Made by a program: the position numbers and the translations under genes. The notes beneath the pieces are model-generated. The model was not told the origin of the DNA. It did no database searches and worked only from the letters and a program-made list of their open reading frames with translations. DNA of 6,554 nt. Source: a virus. Lineage: Duplodnaviria; Heunggongvirae; Uroviricota; Caudoviricetes. Shown here piece after piece: positions 707 to 6,554 of the stretch. Each line of letters starts with the position of its first letter. Position 1 is the stretch's first letter. The stretch is from IMG/VR virus record IMGVR_UViG_3300018471_000108; one strand, written 5' to 3'.

Positions 707-1408
707 TCATACACTTGCTCCTTTCAGCCCAAACTTAGCTTTGATTTCTGCGATCTTCGCCAGAGCCTGTGCACGATTTAGAGGTCTACCGCCCATAACA
801 GGAAGTTGTTTTACTGGTTCAGGTATCGTCTCACCACGGTTAATTCGCGCTGTCATATAGGTCAGTTCATCGGCAGCCTTGCGCCGTAATTCCGCATCAG
901 TAAGCGCATTGGCCCGCATGTTCTGGTACAGGTTGGTAACCAGCCAGTAGTGCGCGTTTGATTTCCATGGATAAGACTCTGCGTCCGGATACAGGCCACG
1001 CTTCCGGCAATACTCGTAAACCATATCAACCAGCTCGCTGACGTTTGGCAGCCCGGCGTTAACAGATGCTTCTTCCCGGCACCAGGCGACAAACTGCCCG
1101 GGTGATGGCAGGAATGGTCGATTCTGCCGACGGGCTACGCGCATTCCTGCGTTAACCTGTTCCATTGTGGTGATCCCGTTTTCCCGGAAAGCCAGAACCC
1201 ACTGGCGGCGGATTTCGTTCAGTTCGTTCTGATCCCGGTTAGCCAGGCTCGCAGGGAAAGTTGCCAGTAACTGGCTGAACACACCGTTGATGATCTGCGC
1301 TACCTGCTGTACCTGCGGCTTTTCGTCGTACTGTTCCGGCATATTGTTGGCGATCCGGCGCATCTGCTCACGGTCAAAGTTAACCATCTGTGCGGCGATG
1401 TTTTTCAT
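707..1408 (-). CDS. P: Lambda-type replication protein P (DnaB helicase loader)
   Basis: 233 aa translation (MKNIAAQMVNFDREQMRRIANNMPEQYDEKPQ...AKIAEIKAKFGLKGASV) is near-identical over its full length to phage lambda P as I recall it. The start ATG overlaps the O stop (ATGA at 1405..1408), as in lambda. GGTGG Shine-Dalgarno 5 nt upstream. Confidence 0.93.
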   Translation of the reverse strand: MKNIAAQMVNFDREQMRRIANNMPEQYDEKPQVQQVAQIINGVFSQLLATFPASLANRDQNELNEIRRQWVLAFRENGITTMEQVNAGMRVARRQNRPFLPSPGQFVAWCREEASVNAGLPNVSELVDMVYEYCRKRGLYPDAESYPWKSNAHYWLVTNLYQNMRANALTDAELRRKAADELTYMTARINRGETIPEPVKQLPVMGGRPLNRAQALAKIAEIKAKFGLKGASV

Positions 1409-2334
1409 AAATCCACCCCGTAAATCCAGTCAGTGTTCGTCAGGTCGAGTTTTGGTTTGCCGGCTGTCACGCCAGCCTGTTGCTTGTTTCGGTTGATTTC
1501 GAGCTGGGTCCACTTGTCGCGGAGTTTGGCCGGACTCAGCACGTTACCGGACCAGAAGTTGTCCTGGCATGCCCAGCGGAACAGCACGCACATGTCGCGG
1601 TGGTTACGTCCGTCACGTTCACGCATCAGGCGGATATCGTTAGCCCACCCTGCAAAATTCGGTTTTCTGGCTGATGGCGCGATGGTCTTCACCATGTCAA
1701 ACATCCACTCTGCGGCGGTCAGGTCTTCTGCTGTCCCCCACTTGCTGCCGCTCTGAATTGCAGCATCTGGTTTCTCCACAGGAAGATCGTTTTCTGGTTG
1801 GTCAGAGGATTCGCCAGAATTCTCGGACGAAAAAGGTTTTATATTGTCTTTTGTTAGTTTGTCTTTTGTGTTTACCTGATTCGGGTAAGTGCCTTTACCT
1901 GATTTGGGTAAACTTTTCTTACCTGATTCAGGTAAATTTACCTCTTTCAGGTAAACTTTATTTTTCTTACCTGATTCGGGTAATGTTGACCATTCACTGA
2001 CCACATTATTAATGCCGATATTCCGCCCGCTCTGAATAAAAATCCCACGCTTTACCAGAACACTTTTTGCAGCAGAACACTTGTGCGGCAATATCCCGGT
2101 CAACTCGGAAAGTTGCTCGTTGCTCACCCAATCCAGTTTTTTATTAAAGCCATATGTTTTGCGCATGACAGCCAGGAAGACCAGAAGCTGGTGCTGTGTT
2201 AATCCGGCCAGCATCACAGCTTCCAGCAACTCATTTGCAATGCGCGTATAACCATCATCGAGATCTGCCACACGCGGCTCCTTTTGTGCCACATCCGGCA
2301 CTGGAAAATTGAATATCTCAGCAGTGTTTGCCAT
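1405..2334 (-). CDS. O: Lambda-type replication initiator O: divergent N-terminal iteron-binding domain, lambda-like C-terminal P-interaction domain
   Basis: C-terminal ~110 aa (...WGTAEDLTAAEWMFDMVKTIAPSARKPNFAGWANDIRLMRERDGRNHRDMCVLFRWACQDNFWSGNVLSPAKLRDKWTQLEINRNKQQAGVTAGKPKLDLTNTDWIYGVDL) matches lambda O as recalled. The N-terminal part contains the conserved VADLDDGY motif but is otherwise divergent. Start refined from the track ORF (2424) to ATG 2332..2334 (MANTAEIFNF...), which has a GGGAGG Shine-Dalgarno and matches the N-terminus pattern of lambda O. Ori iterons lie inside the gene. Confidence 0.9.
   Translation of the reverse strand: MANTAEIFNFPVPDVAQKEPRVADLDDGYTRIANELLEAVMLAGLTQHQLLVFLAVMRKTYGFNKKLDWVSNEQLSELTGILPHKCSAAKSVLVKRGIFIQSGRNIGINNVVSEWSTLPESGKKNKVYLKEVNLPESGKKSLPKSGKGTYPNQVNTKDKLTKDNIKPFSSENSGESSDQPENDLPVEKPDAAIQSGSKWGTAEDLTAAEWMFDMVKTIAPSARKPNFAGWANDIRLMRERDGRNHRDMCVLFRWACQDNFWSGNVLSPAKLRDKWTQLEINRNKQQAGVTAGKPKLDLTNTDWIYGVDL
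1828..1870. other. AT-rich segment flanking the iterons (putative DNA-unwinding element of ori)
   Basis: GAAAAAGGTTTTATATTGTCTTTTGTTAGTTTGTCTTTTGTG lies directly beside the iteron array on the side that is downstream in the O reading direction, the same relative position as the lambda ori AT-rich region. Confidence 0.55.
1872..1983. repeat. Replication origin iterons: five ~17-bp inverted-repeat units TTACC-N7-GGTAA inside the O gene
   Basis: Units at 1872..1888 (TTACCTGATTCGGGTAA), 1895..1911 (TTACCTGATTTGGGTAA), 1919..1935 (TTACCTGATTCAGGTAA), 1938..1954 (TTACCTCTTTCAGGTAA) and 1967..1983 (TTACCTGATTCGGGTAA). They fall in the O linker region, the same architecture as lambda ori. Their sequence differs from the lambda iterons. 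Confidence 0.8.
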
Positions 2335-2420
2335 AATTCCTCCCGCAATGAGTGTGTTACGATTTGCACCTGAAAGTCGGTTCTGTTCGCGCAGACCGGC
2401 TTTCGCCATTTCCGAACCTG

Positions 2421-2966
2421 TCATATTGCCCCCAGCATGGTGGTGACCATCGCCATCAGTGGACCAGCCAAATCCGGGTCCACACGAAACATCGACACAA
2501 TGCCTTCACTCATCTCCTTCAGTTTCTGGTGGCGTGGTGCGTTGAGAATGACAGCCTGTTTTGCCTCACTGAGTTCCTTTTCCATTTCAGCCAGCCGAGC
2601 CATGTAGCTATCCTGCTCAACCAGGTGGCCGCGATATTCCAGCGGTAGTACCGCCAGAATTGCCGGGGTCAGTTCACGCACGTTATTTCGGTATTTTTCA
2701 GAATCGAATTTGTTATCGAGGAAGCGGAACAGCTTCTGGCGTGCACGGCTGACATCATCAGGGAAATCGATGGTGCCGCCGCCCTGCTCCCGATACTCAT
2801 TCACAATGAGTGCGGCAACAACATCCTGATTATCTGCAGCCGACCAGGCGCGAACGGCATCACGGATTTTTTCGTGGCCTGGCGCCTGTTTTGTTTGAGA
2901 ACGATTTATCACCGCAGTCGGGCTAAATCCGCTAGTCTGTTGGTATGTAAGTGGTTGCATAGTCAT
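2421..2966 (-). CDS. CII-like regulator of the YdaT family (functional position of lambda cII)
   Basis: 181 aa ORF with ATG at 2964..2966 (AAGG upstream), lying between the cro-like gene and O. It contains segments (..EYREQGGG.., ..LTPAILAVLPLEYR..) resembling what I recall of E. coli Rac YdaT. The family assignment is from memory, not from a search. Confidence 0.55.
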   Translation of the reverse strand: MTMQPLTYQQTSGFSPTAVINRSQTKQAPGHEKIRDAVRAWSAADNQDVVAALIVNEYREQGGGTIDFPDDVSRARQKLFRFLDNKFDSEKYRNNVRELTPAILAVLPLEYRGHLVEQDSYMARLAEMEKELSEAKQAVILNAPRHQKLKEMSEGIVSMFRVDPDLAGPLMAMVTTMLGAI

Positions 2967-2990
2967 TGCCTTATCAGTTAACGCCGCAGT

Positions 2991-3218
2991 TTAGGCGGCA
3001 GAATTACTCGCGTTAAACAATGGTGCGAGGTCGGGACGAATATCTGCTGGTTTAATCTTTCCACCAGTGGCTGAGACAATTTTCATTACATAGCGGGCAT
3101 CAATTCCGCCACCGTGTAGCCAACGCCAAACTGTGGGTTGGGCTACACCGCATAGATCTGCCAGTCGTTTTTGACTACCTGTAATACTGATTGCGAGTTG
3201 AATGGTTTGATTTGTCAT
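2991..3218 (-). CDS. cro: Cro-like HTH regulator (YdaS family)
   Basis: 75 aa from ATG 3216..3218 (the track ORF begins at a TTG two codons upstream). AGGA Shine-Dalgarno 9 nt upstream. HTH-like segment GSQKRLADLCGVAQPTVWRW and a YdaS-like ...ATGGKIKPADIRPD tail. Divergent from the CI-like gene. Confidence 0.75.
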   Translation of the reverse strand: MTNQTIQLAISITGSQKRLADLCGVAQPTVWRWLHGGGIDARYVMKIVSATGGKIKPADIRPDLAPLFNASNSAA

Positions 3219-3328
3219 TATCAATTCCTATTGGTATTGCAATGAATGAATAATAGCAATGCGTATTAATCCAAGCAATAGCAAAACGTGTTTTGACCAT
3301 CAATACGCAAGCGTATAAATTAAAACTT
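3219..3328. promoter_or_regulatory. OR-like divergent promoter/operator region between cro and cI
   Basis: Minus-strand PR-like promoter: -35 TTGCTT (plus 3273..3278), 17-nt spacer, -10 TATTAT (plus 3250..3255). Plus-strand PRM-like promoter: -35 TTGACC 3293..3298, 16-nt spacer, -10 ATAAAT 3315..3320, placing the transcription start at or near the cI ATG (3329). Repeated AATAGCAA(T) motifs at 3252..3260 and 3277..3284 overlap the PR elements. Inverted repeat ATACGC-AA-GCGTAT at 3303..3316 sits in the PRM spacer. Confidence 0.6.
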
Positions 3329-4021
3329 ATGAAAAAAGAAACTCTTGCTGATCGCTTAAACCTAGCGATGGAACAATCTGGAATGTCTCAAGGCGCTCTT
3401 GCAAAGGCGTCTGGCGTAGCTCAACCCACAATCTGGAGACTGACAAGCGGCAACGCGCGCGGCTCAACAAAAATTGTTGAAATAGCTAATGCATTGGGTG
3501 TTCGAACAGAATGGCTCTCATCAGGCATAGGCCCGATGAGAAATGACGGTCAACAATCAGGGAAGCCTGCTGTCAGCCATTCAAAATACTTCAAGATTGA
3601 CGTTCTTGATATAGAAGTCAGTGCCGGGCCGGGTGTAATCAACCGTGAGTTTGTAGAAGTTCTACGCTCGGTTGAGTACTCGTTTGACGATGCTCGTCAC
3701 ATGTTCGATGGCAGGAAGGCGGAAAATATCCGCATCATTAACGTGCGTGGTGACAGCATGTCAGGAACGATCGAACCAGGTGATCTGCTGTTCGTTGATA
3801 TCACAGTTAAATCTTTCGACGGTGATGGTATCTATGCGTTTCTGTACGACGACACAGCCCATGTAAAGCGCCTGCAAATGATGAAGGATAAGCTGCTGGT
3901 CATCTCTGATAACAAAAGCTACTCACCGTGGGACCCGATCGAGAAAGACGAGATGAACCGGGTGTTCATCTTCGGTAAGGTTATTGGGAGCATGCCGCAG
4001 ACATATAGGAAGCATGGTTAA
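3329..4021 (+). CDS. cI: CI-like prophage repressor (N-terminal HTH, C-terminal S24 LexA-like autopeptidase)
   Basis: HTH segment MSQGALAKASGVAQPTIWRL. C-terminal VRGDSMSGTIEPGDLLFVD (Ser nucleophile in the GDSM motif) and HVKRLQ (Lys) form the S24 Ser-Lys dyad. Start placed at ATG 3329 rather than the track TTG at 3293, because that TTG is the -35 of the predicted PRM-like promoter and the ATG has no Shine-Dalgarno, consistent with a leaderless transcript as in lambda cI. Confidence 0.88.
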   Translation: MKKETLADRLNLAMEQSGMSQGALAKASGVAQPTIWRLTSGNARGSTKIVEIANALGVRTEWLSSGIGPMRNDGQQSGKPAVSHSKYFKIDVLDIEVSAGPGVINREFVEVLRSVEYSFDDARHMFDGRKAENIRIINVRGDSMSGTIEPGDLLFVDITVKSFDGDGIYAFLYDDTAHVKRLQMMKDKLLVISDNKSYSPWDPIEKDEMNRVFIFGKVIGSMPQTYRKHG

Positions 4022-4032
4022 AGTGAGGCTAA

Positions 4033-4069
4033 AAAACAGTTACAGCAATAGGCCTGTTGTTTTTCTTTA
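4033..4069 (+). terminator. Weak hairpin plus T-run after cI (possible leaky attenuator)
   Basis: AAAACAG (4033..4039) can pair imperfectly with CTGTT(G)TTT (4054..4062), followed by TTTTCTTT. The stem is AT-rich and imperfect, so read-through into the downstream cassette is plausible. Confidence 0.25.
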
Positions 4070-4143
4070 AACACGCAGTGTTAAACCGCTCTTTGAGATG
4101 CGGAGTAATGAGATGGAAGACTTGAATCACATAAGGGTTAGTG

Positions 4144-4893
4144 ATGGAGTGCGTAGCGAGCAGCAATAGTGCAATACCTAATGTCGTTGAAGTAATACGT
4201 CGCATCAATGAAGGTTCCACTCAGCCATTTCTTTGCAAATGTGATGATGGGCAGTTGTATGTTTTGAAGTCAAAACCATCAATGCCCCCGAAAAATCTCT
4301 TAGCTGAGTTCATTTCGGCGTGTTTGGCTAATGATATCGGCCTTCCTTTACCTGACTTTAAAATCGTATTTGTGCCAGAGGAACTTATAGAGTACTCACC
4401 TGATCTGCAGCAACAAATTTGTACAGGATATGCCTTTGCTTCATTGTTCATTGACGGTGCAATAGCGTTAACGTTTACGCAGTCAAGAAACGAAACGATC
4501 ATCCCAGTCGAACAGCAAAAATTAATCTATGTTTTTGATAAATGGATATTAAATGCAGACAGAACGCTTACTGACAAAGGTGGAAACGTTAACATCCTTT
4601 ATGACATCAGTAACGATAAGTATTATCTGATTGACCATAATCTCTCATTTGATCAGAATGCTGGACCTGAAGATTTTTCTGTGCACGTGTACGGCCCTGG
4701 TAACCGCAAATGGCAATATGATTTAGTGGATCGCGTAGAGTACCGCCAGAGGGTCGTTAACAGTTTACACAAGCTTCCTGCTATCCTTGACGAAATTCCA
4801 GAAGAGTGGATAGTAGATGAGGAGTTTTTACCTTTTGTCTGCACTACGCTAGACAAAGGTGATTGTGATGAATTTTGGAGCGCAATAGAATGA
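4144..4893 (+). CDS. Short HipA-like kinase-fold protein (accessory, rexA-equivalent position)
   Basis: 249 aa from ATG 4144 (AAGGG Shine-Dalgarno 4133..4137, 6-nt spacer; the track ORF begins at a GTG one codon upstream). The segment VFDKWILNADRTLTDKGGNVNIL...YYLIDHNLSFD resembles the HipA/PI3-4 kinase-type catalytic loop (HipA ...LIGNTDxHxKN...) followed by a D-x-N metal-binding element. YVLKSKP is a candidate ATP-binding lysine. Only ~250 aa, so it lacks the HipA N-terminal domains. AT-rich codon usage. Confidence 0.6.
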   Translation: MECVASSNSAIPNVVEVIRRINEGSTQPFLCKCDDGQLYVLKSKPSMPPKNLLAEFISACLANDIGLPLPDFKIVFVPEELIEYSPDLQQQICTGYAFASLFIDGAIALTFTQSRNETIIPVEQQKLIYVFDKWILNADRTLTDKGGNVNILYDISNDKYYLIDHNLSFDQNAGPEDFSVHVYGPGNRKWQYDLVDRVEYRQRVVNSLHKLPAILDEIPEEWIVDEEFLPFVCTTLDKGDCDEFWSAIE

Positions 4894-5717
4894 CAACTCC
4901 ATGCCTATATAGCATCGTTCGCTATGCGCCTTATGCGGAGACTGAAGAGTTCGCAAACATAGGCGTACTTCTGTGCGCGCCAAAAGAAAATTACTTTGAT
5001 TTCCAGCTCACAAAGCGAAATGACTCTCGTGTAAAGAATTTTTTCCATGATGATTGTATTTTCCCTGTAGCAAAAGACTCAATACAAAGAGAACTACAGT
5101 TCGCAAAAATGCATGCGACCCAGATTGTTGGACATCAACAACTTGCACAATTCTTCAGATATTTTACAAACAAAAAAGAATCAATTTTTCAGTTCAGTTC
5201 TACGAGAGTGATTCTCAGCGAAAACCCAAAAGAAGAGCTGGCCCGCATTTACAATAAATATGTAAACCACTCTGACTACACAAAAGAGCGCCGTGAAGAT
5301 GTTCTAGCCAGAGAGCTAAAACGAAGTATCGATAGAATAGATGGATTGAAGAACGTCTTCAAACAAGCAACCATTGATGGGTATTTCGCAAAGTTCTCAA
5401 TGCCATTGGTCGCCAAGAAGCATGACAGGATCCAATGTGCCATCAAACCTCTGGCATTCACTCAAGCTGAACCAGGAAAAATGATGGAGCATAGTGATAC
5501 TTGGGTGATGAGAATAACTCGAGCAGCAGAAGAAAACCTGCTTTCACTTGATGACATTTTATTCACAATTGAAACTCCTGAATCACCAAACTCAGGCCAA
5601 AGCAAAGTTATTGACATCATAAAGAGAACTATGGATGCTAAGAAAATAAATCATATACCTGCATCCAACCACAAAGAAACTATTGATTTTGCAAAAAAAA
5701 TACTTCCCCAAGTTTAA
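4890..5717 (+). CDS. DUF3037-like protein with C-terminal extension (accessory, rexB-equivalent position)
   Basis: 275 aa from ATG 4890, which overlaps the upstream stop as ATGA (4890..4893). GGAG 9 nt upstream. The N-terminus TPCLYSIVRYAPYAETEEFANIGVLL matches the DUF3037 signature as I recall it (YS..RY.P....EF.N.GV.L). About 140 extra C-terminal residues have no recognised domain. The track ORF start at 4875 is a TTG. Confidence 0.55.
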   Translation: MTTPCLYSIVRYAPYAETEEFANIGVLLCAPKENYFDFQLTKRNDSRVKNFFHDDCIFPVAKDSIQRELQFAKMHATQIVGHQQLAQFFRYFTNKKESIFQFSSTRVILSENPKEELARIYNKYVNHSDYTKERREDVLARELKRSIDRIDGLKNVFKQATIDGYFAKFSMPLVAKKHDRIQCAIKPLAFTQAEPGKMMEHSDTWVMRITRAAEENLLSLDDILFTIETPESPNSGQSKVIDIIKRTMDAKKINHIPASNHKETIDFAKKILPQV

Positions 5718-5751
5718 AATTTATTTTTGTATGTGATATTCCTTATTAATA

Positions 5752-5779
5752 ACCCGGCCACCGTGCCGGGTTTTCTTTT
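5752..5779 (+). terminator. Rho-independent terminator closing the cI-cassette operon
   Basis: ACCCGGC (5752..5758), loop CACCGT, GCCGGGT (5765..5771): a perfect 7-bp GC-rich stem followed by TTTTCTTTT. Confidence 0.8.
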
Positions 5780-5919
5780 GCCTCCCCTCATCACACAAAC
5801 CGCTCAAAAAATCACCATAACCTCGCTTCAGTTATCGCTATGCGATGCAAGTCACAAAATTAATTCTTTTTGCTATCAAACATTTAATATCAAAACACAT
5901 CAACTAATAGCAATAAGTA

Positions 5920-5948
5920 TTGATATCACCAATAGCAATAGCTATTAT
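5920..5948 (+). promoter_or_regulatory. PL-like early-left promoter with overlapping operator motifs (OL-like)
   Basis: -35 TTGATA 5920..5925, 17-nt spacer, -10 TATTAT 5943..5948. AATAGCAAT motifs at 5906..5914 and 5931..5939 (the same 9-mer as in the OR region) and the 10-bp palindrome AATAGCTATT at 5937..5946 overlap the promoter. Confidence 0.55.
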
Positions 5949-6225
5949 CACCATATCGCAACAACACAACGATACGGCAACCACCTGATTCACCGTTGCG
6001 ATGACCGCTTAGATCCGCAGCTTGAATTTCAGCAGGCTTCGGGGAGTGCGAGGGATGAAACGGACGCGTGAACGTCGGTGTGACCAGCTGAAATCAACTC
6101 AACATTTCATACCTTAGTCGCTTCAACGAGGCGGCTTAGTTATGGCAACCGGCGGCCATCCACCGCCTGAATACGCGCAGAAGTCTCTATATGTTCAGCA
6201 GCCCAGCTTACGGGCAGGAGTTTTT

Positions 6226-6432
6226 ATGGTTCATCAACATTACGGAACGCAGACCGTTAATCGCGGCGCGGTCATGCCAGGAATGCTGGTCAAACACAAA
6301 GATGGTACCTGGACTGCATCAGCTAATTTACGCGGACGGCTATATCTGCATCGCGGCATCGAGCGCACTTATACCCGTGATTTGCTCGTGGAAGTTTTTC
6401 TCGACGGACGCGGTAACGGCCTGAATCACTAA
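6226..6432 (+). CDS. Hypothetical small protein (first gene of the early-left transcript); alternative start at 6142
   Basis: ATG 6226 is preceded by AGGAG with a 5-nt spacer. The in-frame ATG at 6142 (GAGG 10 nt upstream) would give 96 aa. No arginine-rich N-terminus, so it does not look like a lambda N-type antiterminator. Confidence 0.4.
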   Translation: MVHQHYGTQTVNRGAVMPGMLVKHKDGTWTASANLRGRLYLHRGIERTYTRDLLVEVFLDGRGNGLNH

Positions 6433-6507: not shown

Positions 6508-6533
6508 ATGAACGCTTATTACATTCAGGATCG
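6508..6533 (+). CDS. 5' end of a gene cut by the insert boundary (MNAYYIQDR...)
   Basis: ATG 6508 with AGGAG 7 nt upstream. Only 8-9 codons fall before the adapter begins. Confidence 0.35.
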
Positions 6534-6554
6534 AGATCGGAAGAGCGTCGTGTA
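6534..6554. other. Synthetic Illumina TruSeq-type adapter (read-through AGATCGGAAGAGCGTCGTGTA), not biological sequence
   Basis: 6534..6554 reads AGATCGGAAGAGCGTCGTGTA, the canonical start of the TruSeq universal adapter read-through as I recall it. Confidence 0.9.

Follow-up and report, generated by a model that had tools for sequence, protein, structure and literature searches.

A lambdoid prophage fragment of Escherichia coli carries the known two-gene HipAD (DS-6) anti-phage system between cI and oL/pL

Small kinases related to HipA can be compared with several described systems. In the canonical HipBA system of E. coli K-12, HipA is 440 aa long, the HTH partner HipB is encoded upstream, and the targets are GltX and other aminoacyl-tRNA synthetases. 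CtkA of Helicobacter pylori, a secreted pro-inflammatory kinase, and human PI4K-IIalpha, a lipid kinase, belong to unrelated biology and have no DUF3037 partner. In HipBST, the kinase HipT has about 335 aa and the HTH protein HipB is retained. The N-terminal subdomain missing from the HipBST kinase is provided in trans by HipS (PMC10627512).

The closest described system is DS-6, a validated two-gene system of a HipA-related kinase and a DUF3037/DUF1829 protein unlike HipB (DefensePredictor, Science 2026, PMC13092281). Its authors state that they had "independently discovered" DS-6 earlier and renamed it HipAD, with reference to Brenes & Laub 2025 (Cell Host Microbe 33:1004), and their supplement lists the accessions and sequences of both proteins (WP_000389051.1 and WP_000210934.1; PMC13092281). 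In MG1655 with DS-6 on plasmid pCV1, plating of the phage Bas1 fell by 3.9 and 5.18 logs (-log10 EOP), and Bas1 was the sole phage affected among the screen rows examined from that source. The mutant D139A retained 0.88 log against Bas1 in the one replicate examined, meaning that most protection was lost. Abortive infection by DS-6 is a hypothesis of the authors and not a result (PMC13092281). The report on Retron-Sda1 equates pairs of HipA-like and DUF3037 proteins with the PADLOC candidate PDC-M66. In a homologous pair linked to Retron-Sda1, deletion of the kinase abolished defense and deletion of the DUF3037 protein was toxic, and the authors concluded that the pair constitutes a stand-alone defense of a kinase toxin and a DUF3037 antitoxin. 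Our literature searches for HipAD returned unrelated biomedical uses only, and searches for HipD together with phage gave no matches. Neither the trigger nor the substrate of HipAD was found in the literature surveyed, though both may be given in Brenes & Laub 2025.

The window, i.e. the whole stretch of 6,554 nucleotides analyzed here (IMG/VR record IMGVR_UViG_3300018471_000108), encodes two adjacent proteins that are residue-for-residue identical to WP_000389051.1 (DS-6A) and WP_000210934.1 (DS-6B) in a script comparison. Judged by this identity, positions 4144-5717 are the HipAD two-gene anti-phage system, also known as DS-6. A sequence-only reading of the same DNA had noted a minimal HipA-like kinase with an unusual downstream partner and interpreted it as an effector regulated differently from hipBA modules. 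Both the observation and the interpretation are correct, yet the system was already known, as the proteins are identical to the published and tested HipAD. Little is added as a discovery, since published work on these very proteins covers their cloning, their defense of E. coli against phage, a mutant of the catalytic Asp and a name for the system. PADLOC, too, already carries candidate models for such HipA-like/DUF3037 pairs. PDC-M66A (E 5.8e-15) and PDC-M66B (E 4e-16) match the adjacent genes hipA and hipD, respectively. Both models score modestly, PDC-M66A spans only residues 13-171 of the hipA product, and it is evident from these matches that a divergent branch of the family served to build the models. 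RefSeq names the two products "HipA family kinase" and "DUF3037 domain-containing protein". PHROGs holds families of unknown function for both, and NCBIfam has no model for either.

The locus is widespread in E. coli. A stretch of 1,780 bases is found at 100% identity in many chromosomes (megablast), and at least 80% of the locus is carried by 284 of 5,426 complete E. coli genomes. The Escherichia phage PhiR5_1 (PV340545.1) matches positions 4021-5800 with 99.9% DNA identity, and its record annotates cI, a "HipA toxin" and a "HipD antitoxin". The two PhiR5_1 proteins have the same 249 and 275 aa, and their genes share the order, the overlap and the place downstream of cI. Differences lie in the surroundings and not in the two genes. 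The gene following P is a different one. Positions 2962-3569 of the window, which hold the cro-like gene, oR and the N-terminal DNA-binding part of cI, fail to align with PhiR5_1 in local BLAST, whereas the flanks are 97-98% identical. This pattern indicates that the hipAD cassette has been joined to a different immunity specificity through mosaic exchange. The order of kinase followed by DUF3037 gene is kept in relatives of 43% identity, which are found in other lambdoid prophages downstream of cI-type repressors unrelated to this one. The same order is found in a 34%-identical relative outside any recognizable prophage context, with no HTH gene upstream of its kinase.

The window is a fragment of a lambdoid prophage of E. 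coli, in which the following features surround the pair:

707-1408, minus strand: replication gene P
1405-2424, minus strand: replication gene O
2421-2966, minus strand: YdaT-family gene in the cII position (Pfam YdaT_toxin, E 2e-29)
2991-3224, minus strand: YdaS/Cro-like gene in the cro position (Pfam YdaS_toxin, E 1e-14)
3183-3292, no strand: oR-type operator cluster between the cro-like gene and cI (four of nine TAATAGCAATNNGTATT matches; 50-nt repeat)
3293-4021, plus strand: cI-type repressor of 242 aa with HTH_3 and Peptidase_S24 (Pfam; cI in PhiR5_1; exact start codon uncertain)
5751-5782, plus strand: intrinsic-terminator-like hairpin of 8 bp with six G-C pairs and a T-run, 34 nt past the hipD stop
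5862-5954, no strand: oL/pL-type operator cluster (TAATAGCAATNNGTATT matches at 5862-5947, promoter-like site, 50-nt repeat), bounding the immunity region downstream of hipD
6142-6432, plus strand: kil

The first codons of gam follow kil on the plus strand, and the interval from pL to kil shows no evident gene for an N-like antiterminator. The Pfam "toxin" names of the YdaS and YdaT genes are probably misleading here, because PhiR5_1 annotates Cro and cII at the homologous positions.

Sites resembling the operator-like 17-mer TAATAGCAATNNGTATT, with up to three mismatches allowed, occur nine times window-wide against 0.23 expected, and all fall into the oR- and oL-type clusters. A 50-nt repeat of 74% identity is common to both clusters, and the best promoter-like site (TTGATA-17-TATTAT, 5920-5948, plus strand) overlaps the oL-type cluster. 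From these matches, the two clusters are presumed to represent oR and oL for this type of immunity. As they flank cI-hipA-hipD, hipAD is placed within the immunity region, in the interval from cI to oL/pL. In lambda, this slot is occupied by rexA-rexB, and the rexAB position is a well-known site of defense cargo. RexAB resembles HipAD in consisting of two genes after cI in the immunity region, with a terminator before oL/pL, and in being exclusion cargo expressed by the lysogen. In their proteins and mechanism, however, the two systems are unrelated. The spacer of 122 nt between cI and hipA contains no promoter-like site, no significant RNA structure (z +0.87) and no terminator or attenuator. 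Together with the strong terminator-like hairpin after hipD, this makes it likely that hipA and hipD are co-transcribed with cI as the first gene in the lysogen.

Two exact copies of AGCAATAG, which forms the core of the operator word, lie on either side of the hipA start (4044-4051 and 4162-4169). Their reading as a cI operator was rejected, as the full 17-mer is absent there. Allowing one mismatch, the core was found 13 times window-wide against 5.6 expected, and the exact copies flanking the hipA start are probably due to chance. A 114-aa ORF (5727-6071, plus strand) spans the terminator-like hairpin and the oL/pL region without any Pfam match, and most likely represents non-coding control DNA.

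Both ends of the window consist of what we take to be Illumina TruSeq adapter (bases 1-31, ACTGGAGTTCAGACGTGTGCTCTTCCGATCT; about 6534-6554, AGATCGGAAGAGCGTCGTGTA). Matches to E. coli genomes begin at base 31, and local BLAST matches stop at 6533. With adapters at the ends, ORFs touching the ends are terminated artefactually. One of these, the ORF at 9-503 on the minus strand, corresponds to the N-terminal half of an anti-phage protein resembling phosphoribosyltransferases (Pfam PRTase-CE). It reaches 133 bits against the NCBIfam model DS32_1_antiphage, under the cut-off of 250 bits because the gene is cut by the window end. The ORF is not a defense gene truncated in nature, but is cut by the contig end and adapter. 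The intact form in complete genomes is a 339-aa gene just downstream of P, followed by a NADAR-family gene. The gene is a second defense-type cargo of the same prophage, and PhiR5_1 as well as the strain AR_452 have ren in its place.

The pair itself and the functional positions of the kinase are as follows:

4133-4137, plus strand: Shine-Dalgarno-like AAGGG, 6 nt before the hipA ATG (read from the sequence)
4144-4893, plus strand: hipA, 249-aa HipA_2-family Ser/Thr-kinase-like toxin (DS-6A, WP_000389051.1; ORF, Pfam, identity to DS-6A)
4267-4269, plus strand: codon of K42, predicted ATP-binding lysine on beta3 in YVLKS (invariance; model strand 38-42; HipA K181 by motif order)
4543-4599, plus strand: catalytic loop WILNADRTLTDKGGNVNIL with the catalytic D139 (nt 4558-4560) and N148/N150 (invariance; published D139A assays)
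4627-4653, plus strand: LIDHNLSFD, DFG-equivalent metal-binding motif with D164 (nt 4633-4635; invariance; counterpart of HipA D332 in FYDI by motif order)
4890-5717, plus strand: hipD, 275-aa partner/antitoxin (DS-6B, WP_000210934.1) with DUF3037 at residues 7-125 and a C-terminal alpha/beta region at about 132-275

The hipA reading frame runs from the ATG at 4144 to the TGA at 4891-4893 on the plus strand. The ORF listing offers an alternative GTG one codon upstream, at 4141, and GenBank and RefSeq alike use the ATG. The sequence-only reading had placed the gene at exactly these boundaries, with which the ORF, the ribosome-binding site and the database start agree. The three motifs it cited are all present: WILNADR at residues 134-140 (nt 4543-4563), GGNVNIL at 146-152 (nt 4579-4599) and LIDHNLSFD at 162-170. 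Its description of a HipA-like kinase of about 250 aa, roughly half the length of HipA, holds for a product of 249 aa against 440 aa in K-12 HipA (about 57%), with a kinase fold and a near-complete match to Pfam HipA_2 (PF20613). The match covers profile positions 1-239 of 240 (E 9.9e-77). At 257.9 bits against a gathering cut-off of 27 bits, it exceeds a chance similarity by far as judged by profile scoring, and PF20613 is present in all 71 homologues.

The short form is typical of its family. An exhaustive profile search retrieved 3,519 representative clusters with E <= 1e-3, of which 993 reach E <= 1e-10. Among the best 150 of the 3,519 clusters, nearly all are 225-265 aa long, with few shorter fragments and one of 281 aa, and most match from end to end. 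Going by these lengths and matches, the members of this large family normally have the form of about 240-250 aa, which is not a truncated HipA. The reading was also right that the N-terminal domain of HipA is missing. K-12 HipA contains Couple_hipA (PF13657, residues 6-103) and HipA_C (PF07804). Neither is detected in the kinase of the window, for which HipA_2 is the sole Pfam domain at E <= 0.01, the reporting threshold used. Based on motif spacing, about 135 N-terminal residues of K-12 HipA, including Couple_hipA, have no counterpart here.

Sequence similarity to HipA itself is not detectable. Searches of all PDB chains with the single sequence (phmmer) or a profile of 36 sequences recovered no kinase and no HipA, with only chance matches at E >= 0.57, and hhalign against K-12 HipA aligned a single 24-column stretch of alphaC at a probability of 16%. 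Kinship with HipA thus rests on the fold and on motif order. Structure prediction followed by a Foldseek comparison, a check suggested by the sequence-only reading, recovered a kinase fold of the HipA/CtkA/PI4K-II type. The AlphaFold2 model, built with the family alignment as input, is a bilobal kinase fold (pLDDT 89.8, pTM 0.88) with the N-lobe beginning at residue 13. Foldseek matched it to PI4K-IIalpha and PI4K-IIbeta (E 4e-7), CtkA (6e-6) and HipA (1.6e-3). According to the model, the hipA product is a member of the HipA/CtkA/PI4K-II group of atypical kinases and is no nearer to HipA than to CtkA or PI4K-II. Sequence identity to CtkA and human PI4K-IIalpha is 12-17%.

The active site is strictly conserved. 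In an alignment of 36 homologues with identities to the window protein as low as 34%, the invariant positions are K42 on beta3, E55 on alphaC, D139-R140, G146-G147-N148-x-N150 and D164-H165-N166. The search for the catalytic and the metal-binding Asp, another check proposed beforehand, led to the assignment of D139 and D164, both invariant. The order of motifs is the same as in HipA with K181, D309, N314 and D332, and the catalytic loop is four residues longer (D-x8-N versus D-x4-N in HipA). The conserved Lys, Glu, Asp, Asn and metal-binding Asp predict a competent active site. D139, assigned here as the catalytic Asp, is also the residue mutated in the published work (PMC13092281), where the conserved-site mutant lost most protection instead of remaining fully active.

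The partner differs from that of HipBA, with a DUF3037 protein encoded downstream instead of an HTH HipB upstream. The absence of an adjacent HipB was recognized in the sequence-only reading and is borne out by the upstream gene, which is the prophage cI repressor (HTH_3 and Peptidase_S24). The DUF3037-like nature of the downstream product, noted there as well, agrees with a Pfam match to PF11236 (E 8e-24). The hipD ATG overlaps the hipA stop by 4 nt (ATGA). HipD matches neither HipS nor HipB at the sequence level, and the window system has neither HipS nor an HTH HipB, unlike HipBST. AlphaFold2 predicts two confident HipD domains of uncertain mutual orientation (pLDDT 90.6, pTM 0.56), DUF3037 at about 1-126 and an alpha/beta domain at about 132-275. 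The authors of DS-6 assigned the C-terminal domain to DUF1829 using HHpred (probability 0.78; PMC13092281 supplement). The modeled alpha/beta domain agrees weakly with this assignment, and hmmscan did not recover DUF1829 in any of 47 HipD homologues. The conserved metal-binding residues of a PD...D/E-x-K motif are absent from the C-terminal domain across the 47 homologues with the register set by eye. At the would-be acidic PD-(D/E)xK positions, all 47 have P172-[L/F]173 and A184-I185-K186. If the assignment of a nuclease-like fold is right, the domain is probably non-catalytic. AlphaFold3 gave an ipTM of 0.76-0.79 for the DS-6A:DS-6B complex and a weaker 0.67 for an interaction of DS-6B with DNA (PMC13092281).

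We consider it probable that HipAD is toxin-antitoxin-like anti-phage cargo expressed by the lysogen, in which HipD restrains the kinase until infection. HipA would act as a stand-alone atypical protein kinase of about 250 aa, expressed in the lysogen from the immunity region. HipD, with its DUF3037 domain and a putative nuclease-like domain lacking catalytic residues, would bind the kinase and, as long as the lysogen is uninfected, hold it in an inactive state. When a sensitive phage infects the cell, the kinase would be released or activated, and phosphorylation of a target by HipA would block phage production. The outcome would probably be abortive infection or arrest of growth, in line with other toxin-antitoxin defenses. 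The system identity, the kinase fold, the conserved active site and the operon anatomy are shown for the window, and the defense with its dependence on D139 is shown in the published work. The role of HipD as inhibitor in this exact pair, the trigger, the abortive outcome and the substrate are inferred, and the toxicity upon loss of the DUF3037 protein comes from the Retron-Sda1-linked homologue. By analogy with HipA, the sequence-only reading suggested a host translation factor or a phage protein as a possible target. The substrate is assumed to be a protein, with the caveat that the closest folds to the model include the lipid kinase PI4K-IIalpha.

Direct, non-abortive immunity is an unlikely alternative, in which HipA would phosphorylate and inactivate a phage protein such as a replication or morphogenesis factor and leave the host unharmed, with HipD as a specificity or sensor subunit. 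Recognition of a phage component would fit the seemingly narrow defense, with Bas1 alone affected among the published screen rows examined, and HipD with 275 aa and two domains is large for a simple antitoxin. However, toxicity upon deletion of the DUF3037 protein in the homologous pair indicates that the kinase can harm the host, and the GenBank record labels the proteins toxin and antitoxin. We give little credence to HipA phosphorylating a small molecule, a lipid or a nucleic-acid end to block the phage. Such activity would be consistent with the lipid kinases PI4K-IIalpha and PI4K-IIbeta ranking well ahead of HipA in Foldseek, the missing sequence-level link to HipA and the D139A phenotype, which shows a need for catalysis only. 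A prophage-maintenance (addiction) or lysogeny-control module with defense as a by-product is hardly credible. It would fit the toxin-antitoxin-like architecture and the location beside cI in the immunity region, with no promoter-like or terminator-like element in the cI-hipA spacer. Protection of prophage-free MG1655 by the plasmid-borne pair, the existence of the 34%-identical pair outside any recognizable prophage context and the well-known role of the lambda rexAB slot as a defense-cargo site speak against it.

Within the preferred reading of HipAD as restrained anti-phage cargo, HipD could be a sensor beyond its role as an antitoxin. As a speculative extension that we regard as rather doubtful, the putative nuclease-like C-terminal domain, devoid of catalytic residues, would recognize phage nucleic acid or nucleoprotein and free the kinase, and the substrate class of HipA would differ from the aminoacyl-tRNA synthetases targeted by HipA and HipT. 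If true, this would set HipAD mechanistically apart from all characterized Hip systems. The residual interest of the locus is mechanistic, as it combines the smallest architecture of a HipA-type kinase with a partner that is not an HTH protein. The window also illustrates the repeated use of the rexAB slot by lambdoid phages as a place for exchangeable defense cargo.
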